Origin: an uncultured bacterium
GTDB taxonomy: Bacteria > Bacillota > Clostridia > Lachnospirales > Lachnospiraceae
NCBI GenBank assembly: GCA_947651225.1
Contig: CANSYK010000007.1
Location: forward strand, 6,784 to 70,783
Length of the DNA stretch: 64,000 nucleotides
Reading direction: 5' to 3'
Every line of letters begins with the position of its first letter. Position 1 is the first letter of the stretch. A program made the position numbers and the translations under genes. The notes beneath the pieces are model-generated. The model was given only the letters and a program-made list of their open reading frames with translations, was not told the DNA's origin and ran no database searches. Positions 2,871-56,292 of this stretch are shown here, one piece after another.

Positions 2871-3257
2871 ATGAAAACAAAAAAATTGACAAAGAACCAG
2901 TTAGATATTATGAAGGTTTTATGGAAAAGCGAAAAAGCATTATCTGCATCTGATATTGCGAAAAACAACCCTTCCCTGAACCTCAACACCATCCGTTCCT
3001 GTTTACAGACAATGTTAAAAAACGGTGTAATTGTCGTGGATGATGTTGTATACAGCGGAACTGTTTTATCACGCAGCTATAAACCCGTACTTACTGCCGA
3101 AAAATATATTGCAGACAATTTTTCAGGAGTGACAAAAACCTTTTCTGCTCCTGCAATCATTGCAAATCTGATTGAAGAGGAAGACAATCTGGAAATCATT
3201 GATGAAATAGAAACTTTATTACAAAAGCGTAAAAGGGAAATCAGGGAGGGAAACTAA
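2871..3257 (+). CDS. BlaI/MecI/CopY-family winged-helix repressor, copy 1
   Basis: 128 aa. The N-terminal LTKNQLDIMKVLW...SASDI...LNTIRSCLQTMLKNG winged-helix region and C-terminal dimerisation helix fit the Penicillinase_R family. The stop overlaps the start of the M56 gene (TAAATG). Confidence 0.85.
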   Translation: MKTKKLTKNQLDIMKVLWKSEKALSASDIAKNNPSLNLNTIRSCLQTMLKNGVIVVDDVVYSGTVLSRSYKPVLTAEKYIADNFSGVTKTFSAPAIIANLIEEEDNLEIIDEIETLLQKRKREIREGN

Positions 3258-50167: not shown

Positions 50168-50845
50168 CTACTGCCGCTCCAAATAATAACCTGATTTATA
50201 AATCGACCGGATTGCATACTGTGTTTCCCTCATTTTATACCGTAGCTGCTTAACAACTGTATCAACTACCCGTCTGCATTTTGGCATTTGATTTTCCCAG
50301 GCAGCAGATAAAATATCTTCCCTGCTTAAAATTTTATCTTTACTATGTACAAAACAATGAAACACCAACATCTCTTTTGGTGTCAGCAGAATCTTTCTTG
50401 TTCCTATTTTTATCTGATGCGCAGGAACATTTTCATAGATGTCTGGATAATCTGTATTGGAATATTCAGAATCTTTCTTTTTGGAAAAACTGTTTTTTAG
50501 CCTTGCCGCAAAAATGCGTATATCCTTTCCTTTCATAATATAATCATCTGCACCGGCACAAAGAACAACAAGTTCACGTTCCTCCCGGCTGCAGTCGCTT
50601 AAGAACAGAACAGGAGCCCTGCTTTTTTTACAAAGTTCTGATAACTTCATTTCCCAATTTTGTTCCAAAAATTCTTCTATCAACTGTTCCAAAGAAAGTA
50701 CCACCGCACAATATTCCTCTTTTTGTACTTCCTCCAGCAACATTCCCCAGTGATCCACCTCCTGCATTGCAATCCCTTCTTTTGCAAGCTCTTTTTTTGC
50801 CCTTTCACACCATTCGATATCATCCTCCCATACCAATACGCTCAT
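50168..50845 (-). CDS. Atypical OmpR-type response regulator with a pseudo-receiver (phospho-acceptor Asp replaced by Ser)
   Basis: The EDD acidic pair, S/T (LFLSD) and Lys (ADDYIMKG) are retained. The D-site reads AVVLSLEQL. The C-terminal winged helix ends in ...RSIYKSGYYLE. Confidence 0.7.
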   Translation of the reverse strand: MSVLVWEDDIEWCERAKKELAKEGIAMQEVDHWGMLLEEVQKEEYCAVVLSLEQLIEEFLEQNWEMKLSELCKKSRAPVLFLSDCSREERELVVLCAGADDYIMKGKDIRIFAARLKNSFSKKKDSEYSNTDYPDIYENVPAHQIKIGTRKILLTPKEMLVFHCFVHSKDKILSREDILSAAWENQMPKCRRVVDTVVKQLRYKMRETQYAIRSIYKSGYYLERQ

Positions 50846-50865: not shown

Positions 50866-51903
50866 TCACCAGACAGACAGCCCCATACTTTCAATCTGTG
50901 TTATCATCTCTTCTAAATTGTCTAACGGCAGAGCAAATCTTCCATTTTTCCTCTCATATACATTATAGCTTTCCATAACCGCCGCTTCTGCCAGATCCAC
51001 AACAACCACATCTGCCCCTGCCAAAAAAGCTTTGGTCCGCCCCTCTTTTAAAACACAATCTAAGGTAGGGCTGGCAATAATTTCTGCCTGTGGAAGCATT
51101 AACCGAAAAACCGCCATCAAATATAAAGCCATATCACCATTTCCACTGCGTTCCCGTTCAAACTCAGTATGCCGTGCCGGAACAAATGCCCCCACATCAA
51201 CAATGGACGCTTCAAAAGACTTCATAAACTGCATATCCTCCAAAACATTATCAATTGACTGGTATGGAATACCAACTAAAAAACCAGTCCCAGCTTTATA
51301 ACCAATCTCTTTTAACTGCCATAGACATTGTTTCCGCAAAAGAAGTGACATATTCGAAGGGAAAAGCCTGCGAAAGTGAATTTCATTCGCACTACCATGA
51401 CGCAGAATATAGCTGGAAACACCTGCATCAAACCAACTCTTGTATGCCTCTGCCGTCTTTTCCCCTAAAGACAGGATAATTCTGCTGTCGGGATATTCTT
51501 CCTGAATCGTCTTAACGATTTCTTCCACTCTCTGTTGTGTATAATAAGCGTCATCACCGCTTTCCAGCAAAAAACTTCTGACGCCCTTTCCTGCAAACTC
51601 CCGGCAGCATTCCATAATTAAACCCATTTCCATTCGATACCGTTTTGCAAATCGGTTGTCCCTCCGGATTCCGCACATTTTACAGTCATATTTACAAAAA
51701 CTGCTGATAGGAATTCTCCCCCAGACCTGTATCCGGTCTTTCTTTACCCGGCGGCGTATTTCACACGCCTTCTCGTATAAATATTCCGTTGTTTCGATAT
51801 TCCGAAATCTTAAAAATTCTGCAAATTCCTCCCGTTCCAGATTGCCAACTGCCATCAGCTTCTGGACAGAGCCTTCCATACATTTTCCCATAAAATCCCC
51901 CAC
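50866..51903 (-). CDS. HydE-like radical SAM protein (BioB/HydE subfamily)
   Basis: CKYDCKMCG (CxxxCxxC), RRDNRFAKRYRM, LESGDD, YILRHGSAN and LKEIGYKAGTGFLVGIP are collinear with HydE hallmarks. Confidence 0.65.
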   Translation of the reverse strand: MGDFMGKCMEGSVQKLMAVGNLEREEFAEFLRFRNIETTEYLYEKACEIRRRVKKDRIQVWGRIPISSFCKYDCKMCGIRRDNRFAKRYRMEMGLIMECCREFAGKGVRSFLLESGDDAYYTQQRVEEIVKTIQEEYPDSRIILSLGEKTAEAYKSWFDAGVSSYILRHGSANEIHFRRLFPSNMSLLLRKQCLWQLKEIGYKAGTGFLVGIPYQSIDNVLEDMQFMKSFEASIVDVGAFVPARHTEFERERSGNGDMALYLMAVFRLMLPQAEIIASPTLDCVLKEGRTKAFLAGADVVVVDLAEAAVMESYNVYERKNGRFALPLDNLEEMITQIESMGLSVW

Positions 51904-52034: not shown

Positions 52035-52063
52035 TTGTAGAGCGTCAAAAGATGTGTTATGAT
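52035..52063 (+). promoter_or_regulatory. Candidate promoter of the toxin mRNA (TTGTAG-17 nt-TATGAT)
   Basis: -35 at 52035..52040, -10 at 52058..52063. Confidence 0.4.
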
Positions 52064-52132
52064 GTCAATAGAGTAATCGTGTTATAAGGTGGTGAACCTC
52101 CCTAAACTTGAAAAAGAGGGGAGGTGGTGCAG

Positions 52133-52228
52133 ATGGATACATACCAGATTTTAAGCCTGTTATTTTTAGGTGGTAACTTCCTGATTGCGCTGCTTGCCTA
52201 TATAGATAGGAACAGCAAGCGAAAATAA
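52133..52228 (+). CDS. 31-aa Hol-Tox-like type I toxin (single TM, basic C-terminus): MDTYQILSLLFLGGNFLIALLAYIDRNSKRK
   Basis: It is below the ORF-track size cut-off. The SD GGGGAGG lies 8 nt upstream and is complementary to CCTCCC at 52097..52102. The sequence pattern matches 'putative holin-like toxin' peptides of Firmicutes. Confidence 0.65.
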   Translation: MDTYQILSLLFLGGNFLIALLAYIDRNSKRK

Positions 52229-52314
52229 ATAAGCCTACCTTGTACTTTGCCGAGTCAGGTAGGCTTTAGCCATTCTGGGAGGTAAACCACTTTGTGGGCG
52301 GTTGCTCCTTATAT
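52225..52314 (-). ncRNA. Candidate antitoxin sRNA convergent to the toxin gene
   Basis: Minus-strand promoter TTGCAA (52344..52349)-17 nt-TATATT (52321..52326). The transcript would contain GTGGTTTACCTCCC (complement of 52277..52290), a near copy of the toxin's own anti-SD element. It would end at the shared terminator. Confidence 0.35.
52231..52266. terminator. Bidirectional terminator shared by the toxin mRNA, the convergent sRNA candidate and the response regulator gene
   Basis: AAGCCTACCT / AGGTAGGCTT 10-bp stem. On the minus strand it is followed by ATTTATTTT. Confidence 0.6.
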
Positions 52315-52367
52315 GTTTACAATATAGCATATCTAAGCATTGATTGCAATAGTTTTCTGGCATCGCA

Positions 52368-52411: not shown

Positions 52412-53101
52412 CTAGGAATCTTCCACATTCCACTTATATCCCATCCGGCGAACGGTTATAATTCTTTCAGGTTTTGCCGGATTGTCCTCAATCTTTGTGC
52501 GCAGTCTCCGTATATATACAGTCAATGTATTACTGTCCACATAATTTTCATTACAATCCCATAATTTATTTAAAATCTGTTCCGACGAAAGCACAATACC
52601 TGGATTTTCCATAAACAGGCACAAAAGCTTATATTCACTTGCCGTTAATTCCAAAGGCTCACCATTTTTATATACCAGATTTTTTAATAATTCCACCCGG
52701 ATTCCATTGGAGGAAAGTTCTGTATCTGACTGTCCAAAATTACTGCTCCGGCGAAGCAGGGCATTGATTCTGGAAAGCAGCACTGCTAACTTAAAAGGTT
52801 TTGTAATATAGTCGTCTCCCCCAATATCAAGCCCCATAATAATATCTGTCTCTTCATCTGCGGCCGTCAAAAAAATAATCGGCACCCTGGAAGAAGTACG
52901 CATTTTTCTGCACAGTTCAAACCCAGAACCATCTGGAAGCGATACATCAAGAATCACCAAATCATATTTTCCATCTGCCCAAAGCCTGTCTGCCTCCAGA
53001 CTGGTACGGGCAACCTCAATTCCATAGCCCTGTTTTTCTATGGCAAAGGATAATCCGGTAATTAAACTTAAATCATCCTCCACTAAAAAAATCTGTTTCA
53101 T
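52412..53101 (-). CDS. OmpR-family response regulator (canonical receiver), no kinase gene adjacent
   Basis: VEDD, DLVILDVSLPDGSG, GGDDYITKPF and a winged-helix C-terminus ending in RRMGYKW. Confidence 0.85.
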   Translation of the reverse strand: MKQIFLVEDDLSLITGLSFAIEKQGYGIEVARTSLEADRLWADGKYDLVILDVSLPDGSGFELCRKMRTSSRVPIIFLTAADEETDIIMGLDIGGDDYITKPFKLAVLLSRINALLRRSSNFGQSDTELSSNGIRVELLKNLVYKNGEPLELTASEYKLLCLFMENPGIVLSSEQILNKLWDCNENYVDSNTLTVYIRRLRTKIEDNPAKPERIITVRRMGYKWNVEDS

Positions 53102-53845: not shown

Positions 53846-56197
53846 TTAATCTTCTGTTTTGATTGACTTAGTTGTCATTACAAATTTTACTTTGCCATCC
53901 ATTTCTGATGAAATGCCAGAGAAGCATTTATAATTTTTCGCTGCTTTATCCACAGCCTTTACTCCATTTTCTAAATCACTGCCTCCATCAAGAATTCCAC
54001 TGACTGTATCCACAAGTTTATCTGTTCCATCTTTCTGGAATGTCTTCATTCCGTCATAAAGCTCCACCGCACCATCTGCAAGCTTGCCGATTCCGTCTGA
54101 TACATCTCCTGTAGAGCTTACCAATTTCTGTACACCATCTACCAATTTTCCTGTACCATCGGCAAGTGTCTTTGTGGCATCACGAAATGTACCACTGGTA
54201 TCTGTAAGCTTTTTGCTGTTCTTCTTAATCAAAGTTGCATTGGAAGAAATAGAATCTGCTGCGCTTTCTAACTTCTTATTGTTTGCTGTAATCAACTTAC
54301 CATTTTTATAAACTTCATCCAATGTGGAAACAATCGTTGAAATACTTCCATCAATGGTAGTACTGGCTGTCATCAGAGGCGTTTTGTAGCCACGCAATGT
54401 CTCTGCATTTTCCGCAATTGTATTTGCACTCTGGCTTAACTGAGTCAATCCGGTATAAAGGTTCTGCTCCTTTGAATCTTTATCGGTTGCTGCTTCAATC
54501 TGTGCAAGCGCTGCTGCCAGGTCCTGTGAACCATTGCCATCCAGCTCGCCATCTGATTTTCCATTTGTGCTGGCTGCTAGAGAAGCTGCAAGCTTTTCTG
54601 CCCCCTGCATATACTGTACAGAACCGGCTGCTGCCTGTGCAAGCTGCTGATACTGCGCCTTCTTTGCTTCATCTGTCTCAGAAGCTGCCATTGCTTCATA
54701 TTGTTTCTGCATTACCTGTAATGCCTGAATGCAGCTATCTGCATTTGCTTTTTGGTCATTTAACGCATTAGCCCCCTGATTCAACGCAGCTACACCAGAC
54801 TGTACCTTTTTCAATCCATTATCGACCGTCTCTACACCGCTTTTTAAAGAAGCTACGGCGCCAGAAAGGCTATCCATATTATCTTTGGAAAGAAGGGTAT
54901 TGACACCTGTTGTATATGCATCTAACTGCTGGTGGAATTCCTCATAGGATTTTGGAAAAGCAGAAGACGCCGAGAAAAGCTTGCCAACACCATCCACCAA
55001 CTTCTTTGTGCTCTGGCTGTAGGTCTTTGTGCTCTTTGCAAATGTCTTTGCGCCATCCGTATAAGTATCGACAGCACCTAACAGCTTATCTGTAGAATTC
55101 GTATATTTCTTTGTTACTTCATTAATTTTACGGCTGCCATCATCAAGTGTTGCAACACTTCCATCCAATGTATCAATCGCATCAGAATAATCACCAAACT
55201 TATCATTTAACTCGTTTAAATTTTCCTGAATCTGATCAGAACCATCTACAAGTTCTACGGTAGCATCCTGCAATTCATCCATCTTATCATCCAGTTCATC
55301 ACTTCCGGAAATATCCCCAAAATCTAACTCTTTGAAAATACTTGCTGTCGCAACCGTATAAGTCTGCCCCAGTTCAAACTCTGTCACGTCCGCTGTAATC
55401 GTAACTGTATCCGTCATTTTGTCTGTTATTTTATTTAAATCTGCATCTAAATCGTCACCAAAATCAATATCTTCAAGCTTTAAACTTTCCTTTAACCCAG
55501 GCATACCATATGCTACAAGAATATCATTGTCGCCCTCTGACAATACCTCGCCATTGTCAATTGTTACATTTTTAAACTTTTCTACCGGAAGAATCATTCC
55601 CGTTGCCATTAAGAACGGAGTATAGACCTCTTTTGTCTCCCCTCCAACTTTTACACTCTCTTTGGAAGTATTGATATAATGAATTACCATTTCTAACTTA
55701 CCGCTTTTTCCTGCAATCTCTTCTGGAGAGATTTCTTTTCCATCCAGCTTATACGTAATTTGTATTCCCACAGGAAGCTCTTCATCGGTTGTTCCCTGAT
55801 AATAAATATCCTGATCCTCTGCTTCCCAGGAAATTTCATTCCCATTTTGTGTAAACTTTTCATCTCCCTTGGTGTTCTGGATATCTTTCAAATTAGACAC
55901 ATCTTTTAAAGTACCATTTACACCAGAATTTTTTAACCAATCAGAAACAATCACATTCTGTTTCTTTCCTGAAGCATCCAGTGTAACATAAACAGACTCT
56001 TCCTTAGATACGCCAGAAGCTGCTTTCTTTTCTTTTGCGTTTTCCACAACATGTTCTGTTACAACTTTAACACCTGCTGCCGCTGCTTTTGTCACCGCAA
56101 ATGTATGAGATGCATATTCCAGGCTTCCTAAAAGCAAACCGGATGTTAATAAACAGGTAACGCCAACTGCTGCCATTTTCTTTTTACTTTTTCTCAT
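53846..56197 (-). CDS. YhgE/Pip-domain secreted protein with X-X-X-Leu-X-X-Gly heptad repeats, lacking the usual C-terminal TM bundle
   Basis: Signal peptide MRKSKKKMAAVGVTCLLTSGLLLGS. Repeats include LADGTGKLVDGVQKLVSSTGDVSDGIGKLADGAVELYDG. There is no C-terminal hydrophobic block. Confidence 0.65.
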   Translation of the reverse strand: MRKSKKKMAAVGVTCLLTSGLLLGSLEYASHTFAVTKAAAAGVKVVTEHVVENAKEKKAASGVSKEESVYVTLDASGKKQNVIVSDWLKNSGVNGTLKDVSNLKDIQNTKGDEKFTQNGNEISWEAEDQDIYYQGTTDEELPVGIQITYKLDGKEISPEEIAGKSGKLEMVIHYINTSKESVKVGGETKEVYTPFLMATGMILPVEKFKNVTIDNGEVLSEGDNDILVAYGMPGLKESLKLEDIDFGDDLDADLNKITDKMTDTVTITADVTEFELGQTYTVATASIFKELDFGDISGSDELDDKMDELQDATVELVDGSDQIQENLNELNDKFGDYSDAIDTLDGSVATLDDGSRKINEVTKKYTNSTDKLLGAVDTYTDGAKTFAKSTKTYSQSTKKLVDGVGKLFSASSAFPKSYEEFHQQLDAYTTGVNTLLSKDNMDSLSGAVASLKSGVETVDNGLKKVQSGVAALNQGANALNDQKANADSCIQALQVMQKQYEAMAASETDEAKKAQYQQLAQAAAGSVQYMQGAEKLAASLAASTNGKSDGELDGNGSQDLAAALAQIEAATDKDSKEQNLYTGLTQLSQSANTIAENAETLRGYKTPLMTASTTIDGSISTIVSTLDEVYKNGKLITANNKKLESAADSISSNATLIKKNSKKLTDTSGTFRDATKTLADGTGKLVDGVQKLVSSTGDVSDGIGKLADGAVELYDGMKTFQKDGTDKLVDTVSGILDGGSDLENGVKAVDKAAKNYKCFSGISSEMDGKVKFVMTTKSIKTED

Positions 56198-56292
56198 AAT
56201 ATTATCCCTCTTTTCTGCGCACTCCTTATGAAACAATACACAATACGTTTATGCCGGGTGCGCTCAGACACAAACAATTGTGATACGAATTC

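Follow-up and report, generated by a model that had tools for sequence, protein, structure and literature searches.

A probable chromosomal type I toxin-antitoxin module of the TxpA/BsrG family, with a bsrG/SR4-like build, in a Lachnospiraceae genome

Introduction

The biochemically worked-out type I toxin-antitoxin system bsrG/SR4 of the Bacillus subtilis prophage SPbeta is organised around a long-range helix: nucleotides (nt) 1–35 of the bsrG mRNA pair with nt 232–262 in helix P1, the Shine-Dalgarno (SD) sequence lies in a short double-stranded region, and the stop codon stands at the 5' side of stem-loop SL3 (Jahn & Brantl 2013, PMC3834814). The antisense RNA SR4 overlaps the 3' end of this mRNA; the loop of its terminator makes the first contact with bsrG loop 3, and on binding a 4-bp helix at the SD is extended to 8 bp, inhibiting translation, in addition to the previously known promotion by SR4 of RNase III-dependent degradation of bsrG RNA (PMC3834814). 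In the TxpA/RatA layout the antisense RNA also overlaps the toxin 3' end (PMC8594479). TxpA-like peptides were reported in Clostridiales by Fozo et al. 2010 (PMC2887945), and a review of Clostridia names Clostridium bolteae as an example of a host (PMC6563280). Here we describe a 315-bp module that encodes a 31-residue Hol_Tox peptide and, on the opposite strand, a predicted antisense RNA; it lies within a 64-kb stretch of contig CANSYK010000007.1 (assembly GCA_947651225.1) from an uncultured Lachnospiraceae bacterium, and "the window" below means this whole stretch, at its full length.

Two further groups of systems are relevant to the comparison. In hok/sok and aapA1/IsoA1, long-distance 5'–3' pairing and metastable anti-SD hairpins are found in the toxin mRNA, the antisense RNA is directed at the 5' or translation-initiation region, and the mRNA is activated by 3' trimming. 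In Fst/par and Lpt, the latter being Fst-like, direct repeats give rise to complementary boxes in the two RNAs (PMC5608710).

A first-pass annotation, made from the raw sequence, had proposed that the locus is a Hol-Tox-like type I toxin with a par/fst-like architecture. We conclude, with a probability of roughly three in four, that it is a chromosomal type I toxin-antitoxin module of the TxpA/BsrG (Hol_Tox) family with a bsrG/SR4-like build. The evidence consists of the family membership of the peptide, the conservation of both promoters, and the covariation of three helices: the long-range helix P1, the hairpin T1, and a helix between the SD and the open reading frame (ORF). What began as a guess from raw sequence now stands on firm comparative ground, with an mRNA architecture that matches that of bsrG/SR4. 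The individual elements named in the first-pass annotation (the ORF, its SD, the upstream CCTCCC, the 10-bp repeat, the minus-strand promoter, and a box shared at 12 of 14 positions) are all present within 1–2 nt of where they were placed, and are non-random; it is their arrangement into a mechanism that we revise.

Results

The peptide belongs to the Hol_Tox family

The toxin ORF runs on the plus strand from an ATG at 52133 to a TAA at 52226–52228 and encodes 31 amino acids, MDTYQILSLLFLGGNFLIALLAYIDRNSKRK, which read as a short polar N-terminus, a single hydrophobic helix and a basic tail. The peptide matches Pfam family PF16935 (Hol_Tox) with 37.7 bits (gathering threshold 23.3, E = 1.9e-9), the alignment spanning residues 1–31 and profile positions 1–34 of 34, and the Hol-Tox-like character first proposed is borne out by this hidden Markov model search, which had been suggested along with it. 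The pattern of the family is found in full, namely a very short peptide with an N-terminal M-x-x-Y-E/Q-x-L motif, followed by a single hydrophobic helix and a C-terminus that is basic. The motif is common to BsrG and TxpA. Used as queries, BsrG and TxpA both match Hol_Tox, whereas Fst matches PF13955 (Fst_toxin) and not Hol_Tox; in the Pfam profile search Fst_toxin gives no match to the peptide even at E≤10, and on this point the analogy with par/fst fails.

The peptide had been described as unannotated, which needs qualification. An identical peptide in public assemblies is a called gene carrying a Hol_Tox Pfam match, some other members of the family are already annotated "holin-like toxin", and RefSeq gives the name "putative holin-like toxin" to relatives on Lactobacillus plasmids that are 58–61% identical. 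Lpt of Lactobacillus plasmids was considered as the closest relative and rejected, Lpt being Fst-like and the plasmid matches being a different peptide. An exhaustive profile-free search with the peptide recovered 100 representative clusters at E≤1e-3, whose consensus is MDTYEVLSLLFLGG.FLIALLAYIDRNNKRK. A PHROG of unknown function is matched weakly, and no solved structure was found for the family. By analogy with BsrG and TxpA, we presume that the peptide acts on the membrane as a toxin.

Conservation, copy number and distribution

Relatives of the locus were sought by a pattern scan using one genome per species, which yielded at least 491 confirmed genomic relatives among species-representative genomes. 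The best 80 of these, all from Lachnospiraceae-type Clostridia, were taken for comparison of the loci. Cultured strains among the carriers include Roseburia inulinivorans DSM 16841 (L080), Extibacter muris DSM 28560 (L045), Eubacterium plexicaudatum ASF492 (L036), Faecalicatena fissicatena KCTC 15010 (L049) and Sporofaciens musculi WCA-9-b2 (L054 and L077). Several genomes supply more than one locus and some copies are tandem; within the window the module is single, no second copy being found across its 64 kb. Alignment of 81 loci shows that the conserved block comprises only ~52035–52350, from the toxin −35 to the antisense −35, and that the flanks do not align.

Both promoters are conserved, as examined over the 80 related loci. 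The toxin promoter is present with the same spacing, and with its −10 ending 66–74 nt before the ATG, in most of them, and the antisense promoter (TTGnnn, 17 nt, TATATT or TATAAT) keeps a fixed position in 77 of the 80, in agreement with the type I anatomy with a convergent antisense unit that was proposed at the outset. The module is a genuine, conserved unit of two predicted RNAs, and an ordinary element of a kind common in Lachnospiraceae gut bacteria.

Four loci (L006, L007, L029 and L056) have lost the toxin promoter and leader and have kept the antisense promoter. The ORF is intact in each, and unrelated sequence upstream of position 3001 replaces the promoter and leader, together with the SD in L007. 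To judge from their sequences, they look like disarmed toxin copies that retain the antitoxin gene.

Several variants were seen among the related loci. Tandem duplications, with a second module copy 0.5–2.5 kb downstream in the same orientation, are present at L018:5526, L057:3687 and L084:3480. In L046 the leader CCTCCC is separated from the SD by an inserted palindromic segment of ~50 nt, and L032, L034 and L074 carry an extra hairpin-like leader segment of ~20 nt, AAGTTTAGCCAAGCTAAAGC, to which a segment in the L042 leader is related.

Promoters and predicted transcripts

The toxin promoter consists of a −35 TTGTAG at 52035–52040, a 17-nt spacer, and an extended −10 TGtTATGAT with the −10 hexamer at 52058–52063, all on the plus strand; it was found by reading the sequence and was not reported by a consensus promoter scan. 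Transcription is predicted to start at 52070/52071, and the covarying helix P1 described below begins exactly at this predicted +1. The toxin mRNA would be ~240–250 nt in length (52070–52318, plus strand), its 5' end being placed by the promoter; its 3' end would be no earlier than 52307 and probably falls within the U-rich stretch 52309–52318. The SD, GGGGAGG at 52118–52124, is 8 nt before the ATG, and an anti-SD CCTCCC is located at 52097–52102, 15 nt upstream of the SD.

On the minus strand the promoter scan reports the antitoxin promoter, with a −35 TTGCAA at 52349–52344, a 17-nt spacer, and a −10 TATATT at 52326–52321 that has an extended −10 TGn. The start is predicted at ~52314, and both transcription starts and the toxin 3' end are to be read as inferred positions. 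From the conserved promoter, the fold and alignment A4 (which covers the antisense region), the antisense or antitoxin RNA would be ~90 nt (52222–52314, minus strand), with a 5' stem-loop, a linker, and a terminator, T1. As predicted, it is fully complementary to the toxin mRNA 3' untranslated region (UTR), the last two codons and the stop. An Rfam scan of the window gave no family matching this RNA.

T1 is a perfect 10-bp inverted repeat directly after the stop codon (52231–52266), in which AAGCCTACCT at 52231–52240 pairs with AGGTAGGCTT at 52257–52266 around a 16-nt loop, and which is available as a hairpin on both strands. On the minus strand T1 is followed by a U-run, AUUUAUUUU, that overlaps the Lys-Arg-Lys-stop codons; there is no corresponding run on the plus side. 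A terminator scan reported no site in the module region. We regard T1 as the likely terminator of the antisense RNA, and on the plus strand as an internal stem-loop of the toxin mRNA and the counterpart of bsrG SL3.

Covariation of the long-range helix P1

Covariation was scored in alignment A3, comprising 74 loci. The five loci from the same species as the window (L001–L005) are 100% identical to it over the whole module, and therefore contribute no signal. The counts are drawn from related sequences and the shuffle control does not yield a probability; we consider the controls with slid partners and the asymmetry between strands to be the stronger arguments.

The 5' strand of P1 occupies 52071–52102 and includes both the anti-SD CCUCCC and the box GTGGTGAACCTCCC; the 3' strand occupies 52277–52307 and opens with an SD-like GGGAGGU (52277–52283) that pairs with the leader anti-SD. 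P1 is paired in 89.1% of cases, compared with 41–51% when the 3' partner is slid. Both sides change in 14 of its 28 pairs, and for the terminal 10-bp segment the figure is 8 of 10; compensatory cells number 104 against a shuffled mean of 30, with none of 500 shuffles reaching the observed value, and RNAalifold recovers the helix unprompted. The full-length plus-strand RNA (52071–52320) folds at −89.7 kcal/mol (z = −5.0).

The strand to which P1 belongs is indicated by its G-U pairs. Read as plus-strand RNA the helix has 345 G-U cells and read as minus-strand RNA only 85, with pairing of 89% and 76%, respectively, from which it follows that P1 is a property of the toxin mRNA and not of the DNA or the antisense RNA. 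A palindrome acting at the DNA level, such as the terminal repeats of a miniature inverted-repeat transposable element, was considered for P1 and rejected: the conserved promoters lie outside the arms, 17% of cells are G-U, and pairing favours the plus strand (89% vs 76%).

Since the two arms of P1 covary, both must be on a single plus-strand RNA, and the toxin mRNA therefore passes T1 and reaches at least 52307. T1 had been proposed as a bidirectional terminator; the 10-bp hairpin is indeed there (91% paired, 6 of its 10 pairs showing compensatory change), but because the toxin mRNA extends past it, it is not a terminator shared by the two transcripts, and only the minus side has a U-run.

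Pairing of the Shine-Dalgarno sequence and a predicted switch

In the predicted folds the SD and its spacer (52118–52130) pair with one of two partners, either the leader CCUCCC or a strand within the ORF (52187–52199, GCGCUGCUUGCCU, codons Ala19 to Tyr23) that was identified from the RNAalifold consensus and from pair counts. The capacity of the leader to sequester the SD, already noted in the first-pass annotation, is upheld by these folds and by conservation: of the 74 loci, 66 retain CCTCCC and 71 retain the SD GGGAGG. Over 73 distinct sequences, pairing in the SD:ORF helix amounts to 99.4%, whereas slid controls do not exceed 61%, and compensatory changes occur at synonymous codon positions, in seven sequences at each of two pairs. 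As modelled, the SD would never be freely exposed, its partner being either the segment within the ORF or the leader CCUCCC.

When the antisense target is blocked in folds of the 74 loci, the predicted probability that the SD is unpaired drops to 0.03 from 0.19, and in 71 of them the SD is then paired with the leader CCUCCC.

These features can be placed in a sequence of events like that of SR4, which by analogy is the most likely mechanism. A plus-strand toxin mRNA of ~240 nt, running from near 52070 to 52307 or further, would be folded so that P1 encloses the ORF and T1; a minus-strand antisense RNA of ~90 nt, from ~52314 to ~52222, would be ended by T1 and its U-run. The complementary T1 loops of the two RNAs would form an initial kissing contact, the spreading duplex would pull the 3' strand out of P1, and the released leader CCUCCC would close the SD and block translation. 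The resulting duplex of ~90 bp would be a substrate for RNase III, probably leading to decay of the toxin mRNA.

A broader proposal is tentative and may well not hold. It is that the module, in this Lachnospiraceae subfamily, is a three-way RNA switch, in which the SD mimic GGGAGGU in the 3' UTR titrates the leader anti-SD and the antisense RNA represses allosterically by removing the mimic, and that the module is among the commonest type I families of mammalian gut Clostridia (species representatives hold at least 491 loci, several genomes being multi-copy and some copies tandem) while being experimentally unstudied there. Such a switch, if true, has not been described for bsrG.

Evidence against the bsrG/SR4-like reading

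Several observations weigh against the conclusion that the module is of the TxpA/BsrG family and bsrG/SR4-like in build. At the level of the peptide, pairwise BLASTP against BsrG returns nothing and hhalign gives a probability of just 17%; kinship with BsrG is instead suggested by the shared Pfam model and the RNA layout. The Rfam BsrG model (RF01412) scores 19.4 bits in the window, far short of the 55 set as its gathering score, and the window has no match to any Rfam antitoxin family. The BsrG alignment at 52069–52338 is still full length (model positions 1–259), and the model aligns at the same place in 8 of 10 scanned Lachnospiraceae relatives, with 19–35 bits and E-values down to 9e-5, all sub-threshold. 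In two of the loci with tandem copies, L057 and L018, the second copy is a second sub-threshold Rfam BsrG match.

The 3' end of the toxin mRNA and the predicted switch raise further points. A weak local hairpin at 52277–52309 is followed on the plus strand by UUAUAUGUUU, and could be a possible toxin terminator. At −10.4 kcal/mol on that strand it is no better than shuffles, and, either as this terminator or as the 5' stem-loop of the antisense RNA, it is without covariation above shuffles. In addition, the leader is already the SD partner in the unconstrained minimum free energy folds of 34 of the 74 loci, and the predicted switch is for that reason a shift in degree and not an on/off change.

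Alternative readings

The alternative that survives best, which we nonetheless consider unlikely, is a module of the hok/sok or aapA1/IsoA1 kind, in which the 5'–3' helix would keep the full-length mRNA inert and stable, nucleolytic processing of one end would activate it, the antisense RNA would mainly target the processed species, and the leader anti-SD hairpin would be co-transcriptional and metastable. Long-range 5'–3' pairing is a hallmark of those systems, the SD is sequestered in every predicted conformer, and the leader hairpin can fold ahead of the synthesis of the remaining RNA. However, blocking or removing the 3' strand is predicted to tighten the occlusion of the SD, so that 3' trimming would not activate the mRNA, and the overlap with the antisense RNA is at the 3' end of the mRNA, not over its translation start, which is the TxpA/BsrG layout (PMC8594479).

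The par/fst-like reading with which the locus was first described fares a little worse, and we judge it improbable. According to it the hairpin is a shared bidirectional terminator and translation is blocked directly, by an ACCUCCC box of the antisense RNA that binds the toxin SD in trans. In its favour, the two transcription units converge, and the window antisense RNA would carry GUGGUUUACCUCCC, whose 3' ACCUCCC is complementary to the GGGAGGU of the SD. The boxes GTGGTGAACCTCCC (52089–52102, plus strand) and GTGGTTTACCTCCC (52277–52290, minus strand) are identical at 12 of 14 positions, and the pattern GTGGTNNACCTCCC occurs at just these two sites in 64 kb, with none expected from 100 shuffles. 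The antisense RNA would carry the box, however, only because it is the complement of the other arm of P1, and the partner of the box is the toxin leader in cis. The leader and SD motifs are kept as given above, whereas CCUCCC would occur in the antisense RNA of no more than 15 of the 74 loci, and CCUCC in that of 37 (in the 3' box, GGGAGG in 15, GGAGG in 37 and GAGG in 62), and the box covaries with the toxin leader even at positions that do not face the SD. The peptide is outside the Fst family, the covariation requires a toxin mRNA that runs past the hairpin, the hairpin has no U-tract on the plus side, and the repeat is inverted and not direct. A generic duplex search of the antisense RNA against the 5' part of the toxin mRNA, with a mean z of about −1.9, was non-discriminating; the duplexes were long, loop-ridden and always touched the SD, and the search was replaced by the counts of motif conservation.

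Least probable of all is that the ORF encodes no toxin with an RNA antidote but a small membrane protein that does something else, for instance as a ComI-like regulator or as a holin-like helper, and that the antisense RNA is incidental or tunes its level. In favour of this, Hol_Tox is named by prediction, PADLOC gives no match, the chromosomal module stands among housekeeping genes and is not closely tied to mobile elements, and the sole NCBIfam match is a weak one to ComI (NF052249). Against it, the 13.6 bits of the ComI match are far below the equivalog cut-off, which is 55; conservation extends to both promoters, to P1 and to two helices that sequester the SD, a degree of silencing typical of toxic peptides; the module occurs in multiple copies, some of them tandem duplicates; and some copies keep the antisense promoter without the toxin leader, as expected were the toxin the dangerous partner.

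Genomic context

The module is situated among chromosomal housekeeping genes (AsnRS, HtpG and LeuRS) and adjoins the gene of an orphan OmpR-type response regulator. The flanks of the related loci are heterogeneous, with 151 Pfam families among 149 flanking ORFs and few genes of mobile elements. The commonest neighbour is a glutamate dehydrogenase gene, which accounts for 10 of the 149 flanking ORFs (L006–L085) and suggests one insertion site conserved across a species group.

Assemblies that are 99.6% identical to the window lose synteny exactly at 52422/52423, ~70 bp beyond the antisense −35, and the module therefore sits at the edge of a strain-variable block. Past 52423, the window, L001 and L004 have the orphan OmpR-type regulator, a TetR regulator, a 796-amino acid protein and an MMPL protein; past the same junction L002, L003 and L005 have an FtsX/MacB permease and an ABC ATPase, a cassette that is nowhere in the 64-kb window. 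The locus had been said to occupy the place of the kinase partner of the neighbouring response regulator. That regulator is indeed an orphan in the window; nothing ties the absence of a kinase to the function of the module, and the absence is compatible with a rearrangement at the 52422/52423 junction.

Two neighbouring genes have features of their own. One of the minus-strand gene pair 50168–50845 and 50866–51903 encodes a 225-amino acid protein with a Trans_reg_C OmpR-type DNA-binding domain and no detectable receiver domain; its gene is directly downstream of a radical SAM enzyme gene, and the pair is kept in all same-species assemblies. The 796-amino acid ORF (53846–56236, minus strand) has an N-terminal hydrophobic segment and a long, repetitive, Ala/Lys/Asp-rich middle, with no Pfam match at E≤1e-5.

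Discussion

If the module is as we propose, the bsrG/SR4-type family is extended from the Bacilli into the Lachnospiraceae, which are abundant gut commensals. For Clostridiales, the literature consulted had found only TxpA-like peptide matches (PMC2887945; PMC6563280), and the titles and abstracts of papers naming both Lachnospiraceae and type I toxin-antitoxin offered no description of a two-RNA architecture in this family. The 74-locus alignment provides a structure model supported by covariation, which could guide probing and mutagenesis and could seed an Rfam-type family. bsrG/SR4 has been put to use in counter-selection or as parts of RNA devices (PMC6563280; PMC12721322), and modules of the present type can serve in the same ways.

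The closest described system is bsrG/SR4 (PMC3834814), and the likeness extends over most of its parts. Both have a Hol_Tox toxin; the 5' ~32 nt of the module toxin mRNA pair with a 3' segment and the SD is double-stranded; an internal stem-loop, with the stop codon at its foot, is complementary to the terminator of the antitoxin; and the predicted convergent antisense transcript overlaps the 3' end of the predicted toxin mRNA. Antitoxin binding, as predicted for the module and as described for bsrG, makes the helix at the SD tighter, and the Rfam BsrG model aligns end to end. There are also differences. The module peptide has 31 amino acids against 38 in BsrG and is weakly similar to it pairwise, and the antisense RNA would be ~90 nt whereas SR4 is 183 nt. 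Unlike bsrG, the module is without a separate strong terminator stem-loop after P1, its SD has two alternative partners (the leader CCUCCC and the strand within the ORF), and the 3' strand of its P1 bears the SD-like GGGAGGU; its host is an anaerobic Lachnospiraceae whose copy is chromosomal and not in a prophage, and its Rfam score is sub-threshold.

With txpA/RatA, from the skin element of B. subtilis, the module shares a Hol_Tox toxin and an antisense RNA over the toxin 3' end, and differs in that TxpA has 59 amino acids against 31 here; the RatA model of Rfam (RF01776) has no match on the antisense strand of the window at E≤10. A plasmid relative lies nearer to RatA. On plasmid pFAM18149.23 of Lacticaseibacillus paracasei (L086:1634–1720, minus strand) the antisense strand scores 43.1 bits against a RatA gathering score of 49; it lies opposite a toxin gene named "putative holin-like toxin" whose 29-amino acid product is 61% identical to the window peptide. 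Inspection of that sequence finds a leader/3' UTR pairing of GGGCGGTGGC with GCCACCGCC and a convergent TGCTATAAT −10, and from this layout the architecture of the module appears to be family-wide.

The resemblance to hok/sok and aapA1/IsoA1 consists in a 5'–3' helix that closes the toxin mRNA and in successive anti-SD elements; the module differs in that its antisense RNA covers the 3' UTR and in that loss of the 3' strand is predicted to close the SD further. With par (fst/RNA I–RNA II of Enterococcus faecalis pAD1) and Lpt it has in common small convergent RNAs, a hydrophobic peptide and a stem-loop over the ribosome binding site. Their toxins, however, belong to Fst_toxin (PF13955) and that of the module to Hol_Tox, and their direct repeats give complementary 5' regions covering the start codon, whereas the inverted repeat of the module places a same-sense box in both RNAs and has its complementarity in the 3' UTR. 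We propose that the par/fst label be dropped: the module is a new member, or a new clade, of the TxpA/BsrG kind.

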